Positions 36,939 to 62,158 of a stretch of DNA of 64,000 nt are shown here, piece by piece. Made by a program: the position numbers and the translations under genes. The notes beneath the pieces were generated by a model that did not search any database, was not told the origin of the DNA, and saw nothing but the letters and a program-made list of their open reading frames with translations. Numbering within the stretch: the stretch's first letter is position 1; each line of letters opens with the position of its first letter. Location of the stretch: positions 1-64,000 of the IMG/VR virus record IMGVR_UViG_3300025696_000001; one strand, written 5' to 3'. The DNA comes from a virus.

Positions 36939-36974
36939 GCTTATGTTTATTAAGTTTGGTATGAAGCTTAAACA

Positions 36975-55478: not shown

Positions 55479-55838
55479 TTATTTATTATAAGCCAACATT
55501 TCTGCTGGAATTCTTGGATATGATTTATAATTTGATAAATTAAAATCTTTTATTCTAAAACAATCCAATAAAGAATCCAAGCTATTATCTTTTGAAGATA
55601 TTGCTGGTTTATTTCCTTTATTATAATTATCTATAAGACTAGGTATATGATCCATAATCGATAAATCACATTTACCATACTTATCAACATCCCTACTTAA
55701 TTGCTCTTTAACGGCATTAAGATGAGGCTCATAGATATGGACGTTGCTAAAATCACCTATAATACCTTTTGGGACCATGTTAGTCATCTTACCTATGATC
55801 TGTGCTAAAAGTGCATAAGAAGCAATGTTAAAGGGTAA
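55479..55838 (-). CDS. thyA: Thymidylate synthase, exon 2
   Basis: Begins LPFNIASYALLAQ, which is the ThyA core continuing from ..FLG. The Met in the track ORF is the last intron codon (AUG ending in omega-G). Confidence 0.85.
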   Translation of the reverse strand, partial: LPFNIASYALLAQIIGKMTNMVPKGIIGDFSNVHIYEPHLNAVKEQLSRDVDKYGKCDLSIMDHIPSLIDNYNKGNKPAISSKDNSLDSLLDCFRIKDFNLSNYKSYPRIPAEMLAYNK

Positions 55839-55875
55839 CATTTTATTCCATAAAGTGCGTAACTACTTTATGCGT

Positions 55876-56142
55876 TTAATTAATTTTAATAACTTTATTA
55901 CAATACACACATAAAGTATGTACATATATTTCTCTATTAGGTCTATTATTTATTTTTTCACAATGTTCAATATGTTTTTTCAAACTATCAGAACATTTCA
56001 TAATATCTGTACTTTTTATAAACAATGTTTTGCCATTTTTAGTATAACTAATTTTAGCTAATACTTGTTGTGATATTTTGTGATTAAAAAATATAATATC
56101 TCCTATATTTAAATTGTTATTGTTAAAATCTTTTATTTTCAT
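55876..56142 (-). CDS. Second intron ORF (88 aa) in the P9 region, unknown function
   Basis: Lies between the P9 hairpin and the terminal hairpin 55849-55872. Cys/His pattern C-x10-H-C ... C-x2-C. Confidence 0.45.
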   Translation of the reverse strand: MKIKDFNNNNLNIGDIIFFNHKISQQVLAKISYTKNGKTLFIKSTDIMKCSDSLKKHIEHCEKINNRPNREIYVHTLCVYCNKVIKIN

Positions 56143-56265
56143 AATATTTATTAATTAAACTGCTGCATATTACTATGCAGATTAGACTATATCTTCACTC
56201 ATTTCTGAGGTCTACCGTTTCCACTCACTTGAATGTACGTTCACAATGAACTAGTCGTTGCGCAT

Positions 56266-56976
56266 TTATTTATATTTATATTTATTAAATTTAACATTTT
56301 TACTATTTATCCTATAATAAATAGTTGATGATGGTATTTTTAATTGTCTAGAAGCTTCATTTAAAGATTTATACTCTATATTATTTATAATAATAGGTTT
56401 TTCTTGACCATTATTACATTTACCTAGATGAGCTATTCTTAATTTTTCTTTAGTTTCTATACTGTGTTTTTTACCATAAAAAGAATTATTTCTACCTTTT
56501 CTATTTGTACATTTAATACAGGCTTTAGAGCTACTATTAATTCTTGTACCACATTTACAATAAGTTAATCCACCTTTCCAATTAGGGTTGTTACTTCCTA
56601 TGTAAGATTTAGTTCTTTTAGGTGCTTTTAATAAAGCTTCAGTAGTTTTTTTTATAATCTCAGCTCTATTAGGATGATTAAATATTAAATCACCACCTGT
56701 AGCCATTTTTGAAATATTATAAGTATCCTTAAAATCAATAACATTATCAAATAGATATTGTTCTCTCTCAAGATAATTATAACAAGTTTCAATAATTATA
56801 AATTCAAAATTGTCTTCTGAATATTTATTAAAAGCTCTTTGTAAATGAATAGAATGATGTTTATTCTTTCTTAATTCATTAAAATGTTTTAATTTTCTAA
56901 CATGGCAGTTTTTACTACTACCAATATAGAATTTCCCGTTAATTCTATTACGAATTATATAAATGTATCCTTTCAT
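56266..56976 (-). CDS. Intron-encoded GIY-YIG homing endonuclease
   Basis: GYIYIIRNRINGKFYIGSS (GIY-YIG). NUMOD3-like GKKHSIETKEKLRIAHLGK. C-terminal HTH-like YKSLNEASRQLKIPSSTIYYR. Sits where T4-type introns carry their ORF (P6 loop). Confidence 0.8.
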   Translation of the reverse strand: MKGYIYIIRNRINGKFYIGSSKNCHVRKLKHFNELRKNKHHSIHLQRAFNKYSEDNFEFIIIETCYNYLEREQYLFDNVIDFKDTYNISKMATGGDLIFNHPNRAEIIKKTTEALLKAPKRTKSYIGSNNPNWKGGLTYCKCGTRINSSSKACIKCTNRKGRNNSFYGKKHSIETKEKLRIAHLGKCNNGQEKPIIINNIEYKSLNEASRQLKIPSSTIYYRINSKNVKFNKYKYK

Positions 56977-57129
56977 AGATACAAATATACAACAGATTAA
57001 ATGGAATACCAAATAATATGTCAACTAATTTATAATAAATTTAATTATAAAATTTAGCACAGGATTATCCCCAGCTTAATCTGGTAGGACTTTCCCTGTT
57101 TAGATAGATTTAACCTCAGCTTACATTTT

Positions 57130-57855
57130 ACCGAGGAAAGTGTCCACACTATGTTGATGCCATTTTAAAGTGAATTTATATCTAGATATATTCTTGTTAG
57201 GATTAGGATTTTTAAAGTCCATATCACTAACAGATTTACCTTCCCATAATTTCATTATTAATTCTGTTCTAGATAATGGCTCAACTAATATCTCAAAACT
57301 CCAATGACAAGGTGTTAATGCACATTGATCTTTTTCTGCTGGATTCCAAAAAGTTACTGTTTTCTTAGTAGCCATTGGATTACTTTTAAGAGTATTAATA
57401 AGTTCTGAAAATTGGTCTAATGTAGGTGATATACCATCTGATTTTCCTTCATCTGACCAACTTCTCAATTGAGCACCATATCCTCTACCTATATTTCCTA
57501 TTTCTGGAAAATGTTTTAGTTTTGATATATAATTTTCTACTCTCATTGTAGGTTTATTATTTTGTTTTTTATACCAATAATTAAAAGCATCTTTACTCCA
57601 AATGTTAATATCATTATCTACAAGATATTTAATATTTTGTTCCCCTCTTAAAATCCATAACAACTCTCCTACAACACCTTTCCAATATAACTGTTTAGTA
57701 GTTATTGCGGGAAAACCATCATTAAAATTGTGTACAATCTTATAATCTGGTATTTGAAGCCTATATACACCTTTACGATTTGGGTCTTCATATCTAAATC
57801 CATCATCTAGGATGTGTTGTAGTAATTTGTGATATTTTTTATCTATAAAAGCCAT
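57130..57855 (-). CDS. thyA: Thymidylate synthase, exon 1
   Basis: FPAITTKQLYWKGVVGELLWILRG, TFWNPAE, ALTPCHWSFE (catalytic Cys), ends ..WHQHSVDTFLG. Confidence 0.85.
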
Positions 57856-58376: not shown

Positions 58377-59315
58377 TTATTTTAAAAATTTACGATAGAC
58401 TTTAGCTATCTCTAATTTGTCATCAGGCTTTGGTAATTCCATAAAATAGTTTACTGCTCCATCAAAATATAATGGACATAATGAATTACCACCACCTTCA
58501 CGTGATGCAAGTATTTCTAAGAATCTTATTTTATCTTTAAAGTGTAGTATATTGTATCCATCTTTTTCTGGATATGTTTTTATACTATGTCTAAAAGGAC
58601 TAAACAAGCCTAATATTACATCTGCATCACGCTGTGTAAGTTTATTGTCAGCAAGACCATCAAGACTAGGTTTTAACCTACTAGCCTTCATGTTTTCTAT
58701 ACTTTCTTGTGCTGCTGATTGCTGTTGTATTACTACTGGTGAAAAATTAAACCTATTTCTAAGTTTGACCAAATAGTCAGAAGAAAGTTTTGTTATTGAT
58801 TCATGTAGATTTCTATGCTCTTTTTCTTTGGATATTAAAGAGATGTGATCTATAATAATTATAACATATTCTTCTGGATCATGAGGTTCATAATAGTCAA
58901 ATATTTCATTTTCACTACTCTCACCAGTTTTTGAATCAGTAAATACTTTTGTTTTATAATGTGTTACACCATTTCTATTGGCATAATCTTCCATAAATTT
59001 ATAGATACCATATGGATTTTTAATATTATCAATGAACGTTACCGTTTTATCAAATTGATTAAAATATTCATCATAACCATCTATTTTATCAAGTACTTCC
59101 TGTTCTACAGCTCCTTTTACACTACGTAAACTTACTGGGTCTATTCTTACTTCTCCCCTTGTATCCATGTAAAGCTTGTTTGAGATTGCCTGTCTCAATT
59201 TTTGCTCTGCACTCATTTCCAGAGAGAAATAAAATATTTTTAATTTGGTATTATCATTTTTTTGTACATATCTTAAAGGATTGTACATAAACAAATGATC
59301 TGCTATTTGTGATTT
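58377..59315 (-). CDS. DnaB-like replicative helicase, exon 2
   Basis: KSQIADHLF.., FYFSLEMS (H1a), IIIDHISLI (Walker B), RecA-like core. The frame is open upstream of the track start to 59315. Confidence 0.75.
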   Translation of the reverse strand, partial: KSQIADHLFMYNPLRYVQKNDNTKLKIFYFSLEMSAEQKLRQAISNKLYMDTRGEVRIDPVSLRSVKGAVEQEVLDKIDGYDEYFNQFDKTVTFIDNIKNPYGIYKFMEDYANRNGVTHYKTKVFTDSKTGESSENEIFDYYEPHDPEEYVIIIIDHISLISKEKEHRNLHESITKLSSDYLVKLRNRFNFSPVVIQQQSAAQESIENMKASRLKPSLDGLADNKLTQRDADVILGLFSPFRHSIKTYPEKDGYNILHFKDKIRFLEILASREGGGNSLCPLYFDGAVNYFMELPKPDDKLEIAKVYRKFLK

Positions 59316-59378
59316 CTCTTTGTTACCTTATTTCTAAGGGTTAAGTCATTTCTGCTTAACTCTACAATTTAATATTAA

Positions 59379-60071
59379 TTAAAACTCATCATCTTCTTCT
59401 TCTTGGTCAACTTCATCATTGTTATTACCTTTTTCAAGATTAAAAACATATATGATAATTTCATTACCTGAATTAGGATTATGTACTCTAGAAGTAGATA
59501 CGTTAAATGTTTCCATTACCTCGTTAATATCTTCAAATCTATTACAATTTGTATTTGTTGAAGCAAGTATTGCACCTCTACCACAGTCATTAAACATTCC
59601 CAATAATATCTTTGAATAGATTCTATTGGTTATTTGTCTAATTTCATCGTTGGTAAGTTTTATATTTTCATCTAATCTATTGTTAACCCTAATAATTTGA
59701 TGACAAATATTATTATAACAAGCAGTTATGTTATTAATTTGCGAAACACCACAGCTCATATTAAGTCTTTCATTATAATTACCCATAGTATTATGAGTAA
59801 TTTCAATTATATCATTATCACTAACTCTAATTGAATATGATCTATCTCCATTATATTGAATCTCATTAAGTATTCTATCAAATGGATATTTTTCAATTAC
59901 AGGCTCTTCTACTACATCTTCAAAAAGATTTGTACCATATCTACTATTCAGGTTACGATCGTTTCTCAGAAGATATCTATTTTCATTCTGTGGATCTATT
60001 TCTACTTCATACTCATTACCTACTGTGAGGTTGTAATTTCTCGCATCTACGCAAGTTACTATTTTTGACAT
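59379..60071 (-). CDS. Intron-borne ORF (230 aa), unknown function
   Basis: Lies between the putative 3' core and the terminal hairpins. Acidic tail DQEEEDDEF. No HEG motif seen. Confidence 0.55.
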   Translation of the reverse strand: MSKIVTCVDARNYNLTVGNEYEVEIDPQNENRYLLRNDRNLNSRYGTNLFEDVVEEPVIEKYPFDRILNEIQYNGDRSYSIRVSDNDIIEITHNTMGNYNERLNMSCGVSQINNITACYNNICHQIIRVNNRLDENIKLTNDEIRQITNRIYSKILLGMFNDCGRGAILASTNTNCNRFEDINEVMETFNVSTSRVHNPNSGNEIIIYVFNLEKGNNNDEVDQEEEDDEF

Positions 60072-60329
60072 TGTTTTGTTTTTTAATTAATTTTTATTTT
60101 TGTAGTTCGGACTTTCCCTTCATCTTATTTACACCAATCTCCACCACAACAAGATGATCCTGTTGGACATGAATTTTTAATAAGATGTTCCTTTGAAGTC
60201 TCTACACCGTTTTGAAATATAGTAATTTCTGCTGCTAATTTACCAGAATTTAAATTTTTCATTAAAAGTTTATTTTTAATTTTATTTAAAAAATTATTAT
60301 ATTCATCAATTGACGGCACGGGATTGCCA

Positions 60330-60953
60330 TTATTCTTTGTATTTTTCATAAATAAGTTTTATTCTTCTTTCTGTTATATATTTCCATGATTTGATCTTTT
60401 TTTCAAAATTAATATCTGATACTCTAGATTTAAAAAAACCATTTACATAATCTTTTTTCTCATTTACTTTAAAAGATTTCATTACCTTACATACACCTTC
60501 ACAAAAAGAATGATTATAATTATAGACTCTTGTTGCATTTTTAAATACGTATAATATATACGAAATTGTTAAGAGCTCTACTTTAGTGTAGCCTTTTAAT
60601 TTCTTTATCTTATTATAATAATGTACTACATGTTCAAATCCATGTGTTGTATCTCCCCATATATATCTTATACACATTCCAGTAATTATATAATCTGATT
60701 TTCTAAATCCAGGTTTAACATCAACAATTATTTCATTTCTTTTTGTTTTGATATCACCTATTGGTAATTTCATCTTTTTCAAATCTTTTATATAGTCAAG
60801 AGATTGGGACATATTTTTGTTGTATAAATCCTTTCCTTGTATCAATATTGATCTTTCACCTTTTTTAAAGGGTCTTGAACAAGATGTATTAAAATCTGCA
60901 AAACAAGCTTGATCTGTTTTTTTTATTTTATCTATTATATAACTTGAAGCCAT
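60330..60953 (-). CDS. Intron-borne ORF (207 aa) in the P5 loop, unknown function
   Basis: Exactly bracketed by the two strands of P5. Its stop codon lies inside P5'. No GIY-YIG, HNH, LAGLIDADG or His-Cys motif recognised. Confidence 0.55.
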   Translation of the reverse strand: MASSYIIDKIKKTDQACFADFNTSCSRPFKKGERSILIQGKDLYNKNMSQSLDYIKDLKKMKLPIGDIKTKRNEIIVDVKPGFRKSDYIITGMCIRYIWGDTTHGFEHVVHYYNKIKKLKGYTKVELLTISYILYVFKNATRVYNYNHSFCEGVCKVMKSFKVNEKKDYVNGFFKSRVSDINFEKKIKSWKYITERRIKLIYEKYKE

Positions 60954-60999
60954 ATTTATTTTTTTTTAATAATGGGTTTCCCCGTTTAATTATATACTA

Positions 61000-61917
61000 T
61001 TATTTTTTGGGTATATAATCATTAAACAATTTTAATAACATTTTATTATTTCTTCTATACACTTTTTCAAAAGATTCAATACTTTTAAATGTATTTACAT
61101 TAACTCCTTTTGATAAACTTTTGAATAAATTAAGTGATTCTTCTTTATTTTTAATACCATTGGTAAAATCACCTAAAATATTTGAAATATTTATACAGTG
61201 ATTAAGTGATGTTATTTTTTTAATATCATTACTAATCAGTCTACAATGATATATAACAGACTTGTTATTTATTATATTTTCTATACTTTTTTTATCAATT
61301 AAATTATTAAATCTCAAAACACATCTATAACTACAATTATCAGGATTTTTACCTTTATCTTTATCCTTAGAGTTTAAAAAGTACAAAAAGTTATTATACA
61401 TATGATAGTCAGGAAGATATTCTCTATAGCATTTTACACTTCTTAAATCAGTAAATGCATATTCTTTTGTGTTTTCCATAATACTTATCATAAAAAGACA
61501 ATATAAAAGATTCTTTTTTCTCTTTGAACTATAGTCCATTGATTTTCTTAAATATTCTCTTCCTGATAAATAACATGAGCATCTTATAAATCTAATAAGT
61601 AGGATTTTTTTCATAATAGTATCACATTCTATAGTATACATATTATATTCACTTTTATCTATTTTAAATAAATGGGATAACTTATCAAGAAGCTCTTTAA
61701 GTACAGGTATTTCTGATATTTCAACATTTTTATTTTCATTTGAACTTCTTATTTCAAATTTAAATATATGTTTATTAGAATCGTAGGTACCTCTTGCAAA
61801 TACTCCATCCCAACATTGAAGTCCTCTTTGATTATTTGAATTCGTTATATTTGTTGAGTTGGACTTGTTGTTGGAATACACTGTAAGAATGTATTGCTCT
61901 TTTAATTTTTGTGACAT
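61000..61917 (-). CDS. Intron-borne ORF (305 aa), unknown function
   Basis: Follows P2. Preceded by a duplicated AAUUUAAAC string. No HEG motif recognised. Confidence 0.55.
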   Translation of the reverse strand: MSQKLKEQYILTVYSNNKSNSTNITNSNNQRGLQCWDGVFARGTYDSNKHIFKFEIRSSNENKNVEISEIPVLKELLDKLSHLFKIDKSEYNMYTIECDTIMKKILLIRFIRCSCYLSGREYLRKSMDYSSKRKKNLLYCLFMISIMENTKEYAFTDLRSVKCYREYLPDYHMYNNFLYFLNSKDKDKGKNPDNCSYRCVLRFNNLIDKKSIENIINNKSVIYHCRLISNDIKKITSLNHCINISNILGDFTNGIKNKEESLNLFKSLSKGVNVNTFKSIESFEKVYRRNNKMLLKLFNDYIPKK

Positions 61918-61987
61918 TGTTTTGTTTAAATTGTTTAAATTCGGAATTATTCAATATGTATTACTACATAAGGTGGCAAATCTGTTT

Positions 61988-62158
61988 ACCAACTTTACTA
62001 TTTGCAGTAACAAGATAATATTTACCCTGTTCTATACCAGCTAGTGATTCTTCAAAACGAGGCATCCCAAAAGGAATACAATTGCTTTTACCACTTATTG
62101 ATCTTTCTCTTCTTTGAGCTAGATCTCATCTTACTCTATTGAATAATGTTTTTTCCAT
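61988..62158 (-). CDS. DnaB-like replicative helicase, exon 1 (57 codons), one in-frame TGA
   Basis: MEKTLFNRVR[TGA]DLAQRRERSISGKSNCIPFGMPRFEESLAGIEQGKYYLVTANSKVG ends in the first half of the Walker A motif. TGA at 62126-28. Confidence 0.7.

Follow-up and report, generated by a model that had tools for sequence, protein, structure and literature searches.

The 64,000-nucleotide (nt) stretch analyzed here (positions 1 to 64,000 of IMG/VR virus record IMGVR_UViG_3300025696_000001), referred to below as the window, comes from a marine crAss-like phage and has a G+C content of 28%. Judged by DNA as well as protein matches, the cultured phage closest to it is Cellulophaga phage phi14:2 (Crassvirales, Steigviridae, Akihdevirus). 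The gene for a DnaB-like helicase, part of the replication module on the minus strand, lies in two parts that are separated by 2,672 nt (61987 to 59316, 92% coding), an interval that we interpret as a group I intron. The genes follow one another in the order PolB, three small genes (one of them Rep_Org-like), a 56-amino-acid gene, helicase exon 1, four open reading frames (ORFs), helicase exon 2, a 135-amino-acid gene, and thymidylate synthase.

Helicase exon 1 (61988 to 62158, minus strand) comprises 57 codons from an ATG at 62158 and ends in ..TANSKVG, with GGU at 61988; its product reads MEKTLFNRVR(TGA)DLAQRRERSISGKSNCIPFGMPRFEESLAGIEQGKYYLVTANSKVG. Past the junction, the frame runs on for seven codons (KQICHLM), and not six as a first-pass annotation made from the sequence alone had it, before it meets a TAG. 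Exon 2 (58377 to 59315, minus strand; 312 codons and a stop) opens with KSQIADH (AAA TCA at 59315), and its product begins KSQIADHLFMYNP. It has no start codon at the junction, the first ATG lying nine codons in, and a protein made from exon 2 only would be without a Walker A motif. Joining the exons gives 369 codons with a whole P-loop (TANSKVG|KSQIADH; Walker A, ANSKVG|KS), and only then does an intact Walker A motif (A/GxxxxGK[ST]) arise; the cut falls between its G and its K.

The joined protein matched Pfam DnaB_C with 46.5 bits (cutoff, 27) in a single stretch, residues 28 to 107, that crosses the junction, and it matched PHROG 19 (DnaB-like helicase) with an E value of 1e-18. Uninterrupted homologues of 365 to 381 amino acids aligned to it without a gap across TANSKVGK[ST]QIADW, with 52 to 60% identity over 97 to 100% of the length (54 to 63% in the aligned N-terminal part). 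The exon positions and the restored P-loop proposed at first pass are thus borne out, and the comparison with intron-less helicases, which had been suggested as a way to define the insertion site, sets it between G and K. Since AAA is common to both junctions, the cut site in the window is ambiguous by up to 3 nt, with an identical mRNA product; relatives whose intron starts with AGA narrow this to 1 nt, and GGU| ... G| is the only choice that both puts a U ahead of the 5' cut and makes the intron end in G.

The same split, at residues 57|58, was found in at least 19 distinct contigs with intron lengths of 1,157 to 3,574 nt, a count made after IMG/VR had been searched with two conserved intron motifs. 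The related loci that we compared carry L-numbers (L004, L009, L031, and so on; L001 is phi14:2, NC_021806). The arrangement is repeated in a TARA contig (L009, 82% identity) as well as in IMG/VR and Logan contigs, and exon 1 is 63 to 81% identical to its counterparts in other split loci. In phi14:2, exon 1 corresponds to g024 (hypothetical) and exon 2 to g029 (DnaB), 2,616 nt apart with g025 to g028 in between. The recurrence of the split, together with the RNA blocks described below, in at least 19 contigs indicates more than chance.

Splice-site signals covary with the exons

The candidate internal guide (61972 to 61982, minus strand) was present as the first-pass annotation had described it and consists of GAUUU, for P10, followed by GCCACC, for P1. 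GCCACC pairs with GUUGGU at the end of exon 1, with a U.G pair at the splice site; this U.G was found at the 5' splice site in 22 of 22 loci and is followed by two G-C pairs, and P1 also carries one conserved U.C mismatch. The fourth pair joins the guide to the wobble position of the Val codon; it reads U-A in the window and C-G in L009, and 11 loci have G-C. These changes are compensatory and involve a synonymous exon position.

Across loci, exon 1 always ends ..AA(A/G)(G/A)UNGGU, the intron always opens A(A/G)A..UUU-GCCNCC, and exon 2 opens AAAUC or AAAAC. P10 is GAUUU/AAAUC (encoding K-S) in the window and five other loci and GUUUU/AAAAC (K-T) in L032 and L047. The remaining AAAAC loci have the weaker AUUUU or AAUUU, with a P10 of just 3 to 4 bp, and L090 combines an AAAUC exon 2 with the guide AAAUU. 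P1 and P10 both covary with the exons via synonymous or conservative exon changes. The terminal G was found in 19 of 19 helicase introns, and in 18 of the 19 it is preceded at a short distance by a (G/A)UAAC motif; the window intron ends ..GGUAACAAAGAG|, and phi14:2 has neither P9.1 or P9.2 nor the (G/A)UAAC motif. Members of the family in three other host genes carry guides that fit their own exons (..ACCGU with GCGG, ..GGGCGU with GCGCC, and ..AUGGGU with GCCC).

A group I core assembled from the spacers between ORFs

When six and then about 35 related introns were compared, the conserved nucleotides proved to be the spacers between the ORFs. The P/Q/R/S naming used here follows established group I knowledge, and its placement was confirmed by Rfam alignments of homologues. 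All elements lie on the minus strand and are described from the 5' end of the intron.

The guide is followed by the P2 hairpin (61956 to 61969; AUGUA-GUAA-UACAU, with a GNRA loop), in which all five pairs change on both sides among the 22 loci, and by the P3 5' strand (UUCC, 61943 to 61946), which lies upstream of ORF 1 and pairs with GGAA at 60191 to 60188. Nine P3 pair combinations occur across loci: UUCC/GGAA, UUCA/UGAA, CUCA/UGAG, CUCA/UGGG, CUCU/GGAG, CUCU/AGAG, CUUU/GAAG, CUCC/GGAG, and CUCG/CGAG. Next comes a helix that we call X, whose 5' strand (UUAAACAAUUU, 61928 to 61938) closes ORF 1 by pairing with AAAUUGUUUAA (61022 to 61032). Read by eye, helix X is a perfect duplex of 10 to 13 bp whose sequence is unrelated among the window, L009, L004, L012, and L001, and compact relatives have a short GAAA-capped hairpin in its place. 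A second hairpin, Y (UUAUAUAC..GUAUAUAA, 60990 to 61018, with an A-rich loop), stands between P3 and J3/4; its stem covaries in L012, L001, L011, L031, and L049 and forms in the minimum free energy (MFE) fold. In all members examined, X and Y separate the P3 5' strand from the AAA before P4.

The P element (60968 to 60985) contains the P4 5' strand ACGGGG, J4/5 AAAC, and the P5 5' strand CCAUUAUU. Its partner region (60313 to 60334) contains P5' AAUAAUGG, CAAU, the Q element CAAUCCCGU with P4' UCCCGU, and the P6 5' strand GCCGU; P4 variants among the relatives are ACGGUG/UACCGU, ACGAGG/UCUCGU, and ACGGCG/CGCCGU, and a 16-mer from this region, CAATCCCGTGCCGTCA, was found in 37 IMG/VR stretches. 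Beyond a P6 loop of 102 nt, the next block (60188 to 60210) holds P6' ACGGU, GUAGA, the R element GUAGAGACU with P7 GACU, J7/3 UCAAA, and P3' GGAA, and a 15-mer from the R region, AACGGTGTAGAGACT, occurs in 82 IMG/VR stretches. P8 (60121 to 60187) is CAUCUUAUU ... AAUAAGAUG with a 49-nt loop and is replaced by CAACCUAU/AUAGGUUG in L009 and by UAUCCU/AGGAUA in L004. It is followed by J8/7 AAGGGAA, the S element with P7' AGUC, CGAA, and the P9 5' strand CUACAA (60100 to 60120). The 3' end (59316 to 59367) is made up of P9' UUGUAG, P9.1 (GUUAAG-CAGAAAUGA-CUUAAC), P9.2 (CCUUA-GAAA-UAAGG), and GUAACAAAGAG with the terminal G.

The RNA blocks amount to spacers of 70, 46, 53, and 63 nt plus a small ORF of 225 nt, and the long-range helices span 918 nt (X), 633 nt (P5), 732 nt (P9), and 1,751 nt (P3). 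In a mini-intron of 424 nt, in which ORFs 1, 2, and 4 were replaced by GAAA, the MFE fold took on a group I topology with P2, X, Y, P3, P4-P5, P6, P8, P9, P9.1, and P9.2, as the first-pass annotation had required of such a construct. The P2 hairpin, the P4 (ACGGG/CCCGU) and P5 helices that bracket the ORF at 60330 to 60953, and two terminal hairpins (59360 to 59340 and 59339 to 59326, here P9.1 and P9.2) had likewise been seen at first pass. All of these first-pass assignments survived comparison with relatives, among them that of GAUGAAGGGAAAGUCC (60124 to 60109) to J8/7-P7', and so did the guess that P6 to P8 lie within 60330 to 60072. P3, hairpins X and Y, a fourth ORF in the core, a TGA codon in exon 1, and the free-standing occurrence of two embedded genes in intron-less relatives are additions of the present analysis.

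Covariation and Rfam comparisons

For an alignment-wide view, helix strands were cut at fixed offsets from sequence anchors in the 22 loci and concatenated, giving 56 pairs. Standard pairs filled 94.9% of the cells, compared to 81.2% in shuffled and 34 to 40% in slid alignments. Changes on both sides were seen for 31 of the 56 pairs (19.9 shuffled, 4 to 11 slid), and the covariation score was 0.358, a value reached in 0 of 500 shuffles (0.123 shuffled, 0.027 to 0.050 slid). Covarying elements were P3 (97.7% paired, three of four pairs changing on both sides), P4 (100% paired, with four pair types at one position and G-C for G.U at another), P5 (93% paired, five of six pairs), P8 (94.4% paired, six of eight pairs), P9, P9.1, and helix X around the first ORF. 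Complementarity served to place the P8 5' strand in the four loci that have an insertion between R and P8. P7 (GACU/AGUC), the pseudoknot that holds the guanosine-binding site in group I introns, was complementary in 21 of 21 loci, is invariant, and fits the Rfam consensus AGACUA..AUAGUC in homologues.

RF00028 was the only Rfam family that gave colinear matches on homologues with more contiguous cores. The L031 intron, 1,157 nt long and at the same insertion site, scored 30.9 bits (E = 5e-6), and L004 scored 12.4 bits on P4-P5-P4' (model positions 60 to 96) and 10.7 bits on R-P3'-P8-S; in both, Rfam aligned the homologous segments to AGACUA and P3' of RF00028.

Four ORFs, one of them through the core

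Four ORFs of at least 60 amino acids, and not three as counted at first pass, lie in the interval on the minus strand: ORF 1 (61000 to 61917, 305 amino acids) in the helix X loop, ORF 2 (60330 to 60953, 207 amino acids) in the P5 loop, ORF 3 (60125 to 60349, 74 amino acids), which starts in L5, spans the core, and closes with a Cys-rich tail in the P8 loop, and ORF 4 (59379 to 60071, 230 amino acids) in the P9 loop, with an acidic C-terminal tail. Each embedded ORF is closed by a covarying long-range helix. None of the four had a significant match in Pfam, PHROGs, or NCBIfam. The homologue search for a function of ORF 1 gave nothing, its single-sequence AlphaFold2 (AF2) model was unusable (predicted local distance difference test [pLDDT] score of 38), and its family resembled three other cargo families weakly in hhalign (50 to 75% probability). 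An ORF 2 homologue is present in the L038 intron, L004 has a short hairpin in the place of ORF 2, and hidden Markov model iteration from ORF 2 brought no recruits. The ORF 4 family comprises 525 representatives at an E value of ≤1e-3. In its AF2 model (pLDDT, 83), an SH3-like barrel is accompanied by an alpha/beta domain with a weak likeness to GNAT; the model is not nuclease-like and had no match in the PDB at an E value of <1e-3. ORF 4 ends ..DQEEEDDEF (acidic, with a terminal Phe), and the C termini of several relatives are acidic too; such tails recall the C-terminal tails of phage single-stranded-DNA-binding proteins and helicases.

Two of the embedded genes, moreover, are free-standing neighbors of the helicase in intron-less relatives. 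An ORF 4 homologue lies directly upstream of the uninterrupted helicase in L005 to L008 and L037. In L006 to L008, whose uninterrupted helicases are 58 to 59% identical, the order is Rep_Org, the 56-amino-acid gene, an ORF 1-like gene, an ORF 4-like gene, and the full helicase, with gaps of 4 to 36 nt flanking the ORF 1-like and ORF 4-like genes and no intron remnants in these gaps. The order in the window is the same, with exon 1 and the RNA blocks intercalated. Synteny in these genomes is compatible both with an intron that engulfed its neighbors and with a derived intron-less order. The ORF 4 gene always stands directly upstream of the helicase body, with or without the intron.

The 19 helicase introns carry two to six ORFs each, from about 17 families, and are 71 to 94% coding. 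Insertion points include the J2/3 region, helix X, L5, the P6 and P8 loops, the point between R and P3', L9, and a point downstream of P9.1. When 30 cargo representatives were compared to Pfam, only LAGLIDADG rose above noise; it was found in 4 of the 19 related helicase introns and not in the window. L012 and L015 carry a LAGLIDADG_2 endonuclease gene between the P7 5' strand and P3', an unusual point inside the core; L049 and L105 have an insertion at the same R-to-P3' point, that of L049 coding for a closely similar protein, and in all four the core-spanning ORF stops directly after NGVETK. In L090, a LAGLIDADG gene follows a short P8 hairpin, and a normal S element was not found.

ORF 3 reads the Q element as NPVPS and the R element as NGVET. 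In a scan of the core frame that excluded L079 (its flanks do not fit the family), the frame was open for 55 to 240 codons in 35 of 36 loci and for 37 codons in L047, whereas the other two frames were open for 2 to 30. The distance from Q to R equals 1 modulo 3 in 38 of 38 cases, across 15 different lengths of 103 to 196 nt, and differences in L6 between pairs sharing an L6 type fall on the three codon positions as 78/40/84. Many core-spanning ORFs end in a CxxC..CxxC cluster encoded in the P8 loop. Where P4 covaries, the encoded residue changes as well (NPVPS to NTVPS, NLVPS, or NAVPS) and the noncoding P element compensates, so that both RNA and coding constraints act on the core sequence. 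Judged from these comparisons, ORF 3 is probably translated through the ribozyme core, and its frame is kept in every member of the family that was found. In L019 (222 amino acids) and L015 (236 amino acids), cargo in L5 and the core-spanning ORF form one in-frame fusion, whose N-terminal part, judged by eye, looks GNAT-like in L019 and resembles the cargo family L020_969/L047_1525 in L015.

A TGA codon in exon 1

Codon 11 of exon 1 is an in-frame TGA (62128 to 62126). The stop codons of the 43 window ORFs of at least 150 codons are TAA (37) and TAG (6), and none is TGA. An exon 2 TGA of L009 stands opposite a Trp (..ADWLF) that the relatives conserve, and TGA reassignment in crAss-like phages is known (Yutin et al. 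2021, PMC7886860). The codon is probably a sense codon in this phage, likely Trp. No tRNA or suppressor gene was found in the 64-kb window. Internal TGAs also join neighboring ORFs in several long frames, for example, at 36974 to 35751, 39900 to 38248, and 40960 to 39959 (all on the minus strand).

Evidence for and against a splicing intron

Taken together, we put the probability that the helicase interval is a group I intron and is also competent to splice at roughly 85%. The anatomy, conservation, and covariation reported above carry this estimate, and several observations weigh against it. RF00028 did not match the window at the gathering threshold (whole window) nor, at an E value of ≤10, positions 59200 to 62100 or the Q-to-S stretch (60060 to 60345, 286 nt), so that the covariance-model check proposed at first pass yielded nothing on the window itself and succeeded only as colinear matches on L004 and L031. 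P6 and P7 never vary, and covariation is therefore silent on both. The anchors for P2, P9, and P9.1 were partly picked by complementarity, which biases their values upward, and in five loci (L001, L011, L038, L042, and L090) cells were set by hand or to N. The layout departs from the textbook: P3 has just 4 bp, two hairpins and a 918-nt ORF stand between it and P4, and the canonical strand order, in which a short J3/4 links the P3 5' strand to P4, is not seen. In the window, J8/7 reads AAGGGAA where the family consensus is AUGAGAU, a deviation by which this copy could be weakened. None of ORFs 1 to 4 is recognizable as a homing endonuclease (LAGLIDADG, GIY-YIG, HNH, His-Cys, or PD-(D/E)xK), and the protein database contained no spliced full-length protein of more than 60% identity, the closest relatives there (63 to 100% identity) all being exon-2-only proteins of about 305 amino acids. 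As for Rfam, 16 family loci had no group I match at gathering, and phi14:2, cr111_1, and cr112_1 had none at an E value of ≤1. The T4 td and nrdB introns, run as controls, reached 40.3 and 35.7 bits against RF00028, both less than the 50-bit gathering score. Since these proven introns also miss it, such a failure is expected of ORF-carrying phage introns, for which the gathering criterion is not decisive.

A rival reading is that this copy descends from a group I intron but has decayed and no longer splices, or does so only with protein help, the helicase being nonfunctional or replaced by a host or other helicase. The off-consensus S and J8/7 region, the empty Rfam result on the window, the lack of an endonuclease in the window intron, and the TGA in exon 1 would all fit such a copy. 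We nevertheless consider decay unlikely, because both exon frames are intact and 63 to 82% identical to those of relatives, all helices are intact with window-specific compensatory pairs in P1 (U-A), P8, and P9, and recoding accounts for the TGA, given that none of the 43 long ORFs ends in one; the replicative helicase is, moreover, a core crAss-like gene (PMC7886860). The interval also resembles a normal gene-dense operon, ORF 1-like and ORF 4-like genes stand free beside an intact helicase in L006 to L008, and phi14:2 is annotated as separate pieces, all of which would suit a helicase made of a 64-amino-acid N-terminal piece and a body of about 305 amino acids that assemble noncovalently around ordinary intervening genes. 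A cut between the G and the K of the GKS P-loop and an exon 2 whose first ATG lies downstream of the junction speak against two such proteins. Their assembly would also leave unexplained the P/Q/R/S elements in the spacers, the U.G and terminal G at the junctions, the covariation of the guide with synonymous exon positions, and the covarying helix round every ORF, and we regard it as very improbable.

A discontinuous group I intron, with separate transcripts from internal promoters joined in trans via X, P5, or P9, is equally hard to credit. The long closing helices (10 to 13 bp in X; P9 with a possible 10-bp extension, read by eye) would permit such an association, and crAss-like phage promoters lie outside the coverage of the promoter scan. 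However, promoter-like sites in that scan were fewer than in shuffles (27 compared to 35.7), no terminator-like site was found on the coding strand of the intron, the genes are tightly packed and co-oriented, and compact relatives such as L031 are plainly arranged in cis. Two further candidates were rejected: an intein, since the TAG closes the frame seven codons past the junction and no intein blocks were found, and a group II intron, since there is no reverse transcriptase ORF and both its boundaries and its core have group I features.

Related introns and neighboring features

In the phi14:2 record (NC_021806, 12,982 to 16,707), g029 begins at an internal Met and no intron is annotated, and PolB is already annotated there as joined from two pieces. 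The helicase gene is evidently a hotspot for insertions: some relatives show further interruptions near residues 160/161, 280/281, and ~134 (L016, 10420 to 11546; L085, ~9635 to 8560; L107, ~2436 to 2074; L042, 7602 to 6607). The same intron family was seen in other host genes in L027, L029, L045, and L101, with Q and R identical or nearly so and with guides that fit the exons there, and L027 apparently has two intron copies about 2.3 kb apart. On viral contigs with the helicase intron family, Rfam at gathering also reported tmRNA genes (74.9 and 68.8 bits) and two tRNAs; these sites are L024, 8081 to 8424; L045, 708 to 1042; and L032, 7369 to 7547.

The thymidylate synthase gene of the window is split as well, with residues 1 to 252 at 57855 to 57130 and residues 253 to 358 at 55838 to 55482. 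The interval (55839 to 57129, minus strand, ~1.29 kb) contains an ORF at 56266 to 57024 and begins with a P4-like AAACAGGGAAAG..AAUCCUGUGC motif; it is a second group I-like intron, of a sequence family other than that of the helicase intron.

Relation to known systems

The helicase intron resembles the T4 td and nrdB introns, which belong to subgroup IA2 and carry I-TevI and I-TevIII, in residing in a phage DNA metabolism gene, in looping an ORF out of a peripheral stem, and in its P/Q/R/S core, U.G 5' site, and terminal G, and its L031 homologue shares with them an RF00028 score of less than the gathering threshold. The T4 introns are 0.6 to 1 kb long, with one homing endonuclease ORF in one loop, no ORF through the core, and nothing between P3 and P4, and they have P7.1 and P7.2, which the present family lacks. 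Coding sequence that overlaps the ribozyme core, and cargo other than a homing endonuclease, are features shared with mitochondrial introns: the yeast bI4/aI4 maturase ORFs extend through core helices, and a fungal rnl intron (mL2449) houses rps3. The mitochondrial ORF is usually fused in frame to the upstream exon, one per intron, whereas the phage intron has a free-standing small ORF that runs from L5 across P4', P6, P7, P3', and P8 and up to six separate ORFs in different loops. Aeromonas phage Aeh1, a precedent for the reading of a helicase in two polypeptides, also has an essential DNA metabolism gene interrupted by one or more inserted genes; work by Friedrich et al. from 2007 is said to have found NrdA split by mobE, with the two polypeptides assembling, but no ribozyme is involved in Aeh1, whereas here the RNA signals argue for splicing.

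Group I introns are already known from crAss-like phages. Yutin et al. 2021 (PMC7886860) describe them in core genes of Crassvirales that serve replication or structure, together with stop codon recoding; they were found via endonuclease domains, chiefly among the delta and zeta groups (MCP, PolB, primase, as well as ATP_43b), and DnaB is not among the genes named in the sections consulted. In two gut crAss-like phages of the Steigviridae, cr111_1 and cr112_1, a DnaB intron lies in the same P-loop codons; it sits 4 nt upstream, after the GU of the Val codon, ends ..GGUAUG|A, is about 900 nt long with a single GIY-YIG gene (annotated "intron endonuclease"), and has a different core sequence. 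The present family occupies that upstream site in L107 and L058. Our literature search found no description of the helicase intron family or of the phi14:2 helicase intron and no account of multi-cargo phage group I introns, a core-spanning ORF, or elements between P3 and P4; such silence is no proof of novelty.

Proposed splicing pathway and its implications

We infer that the interval is covered by a single transcript and that the folded RNA is catalytic. Transcription would run from exon 1 across the four embedded ORFs into exon 2 to give the pre-mRNA, and the five short RNA blocks would meet via the long-range helices to form a P1-P10 ribozyme from which the ORFs loop out. An external guanosine would then attack after the U of GGU (61988), held as U.G by the guide GCCACC; P10 (GAUUU with AAAUC) would position exon 2, the terminal G (59316) would be released, and the ligated mRNA would encode a 369-amino-acid helicase with an intact GKS P-loop. 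In phi14:2, the ligated junction is expected to read ..AAAGUGGGU|AAAUCACAA...

The ORFs have their start and stop codons within or beside the closing helices, and ORF 3 traverses P4', P6, P7, P3', and P8. We therefore expect ribozyme folding and the translation of embedded genes to be mutually exclusive on a given RNA molecule. A more far-reaching idea, which we offer only tentatively, is that the lineage has become a gene-carrying scaffold instead of a selfish endonuclease vehicle. The ribozyme would then persist only as the spacers of a small operon, with two to six unrelated cargo genes at no fewer than six insertion points and with ordinary helicase neighbors (the ORF 1 and ORF 4 families) either taken in or shared with intron-less relatives, and ribosomes on the core ORF would unfold P4', P6, P7, P3', and P8.

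For phi14:2 and many marine crAss-like genomes, the group I reading means that the replicative helicase is misannotated as fragments. The family is missed by the default Rfam threshold and also by endonuclease-based intron searches, since most of its members have no recognizable endonuclease. It illustrates the extent to which a group I ribozyme can be stretched, with helices spanning 0.6 to 1.8 kb, 71 to 94% coding content, and cargo in many loops, and its core reading frame is a natural case of an RNA sequence under dual ribozyme and protein constraint. With phi14:2 and its host in culture, the system is directly tractable. An essential replication enzyme here appears to need an RNA fold that translation of the embedded genes should disrupt, which suggests a link to timing or regulation; if the scaffold idea holds, a switch between translation and splicing would couple the timing of helicase production to the expression of the embedded genes.

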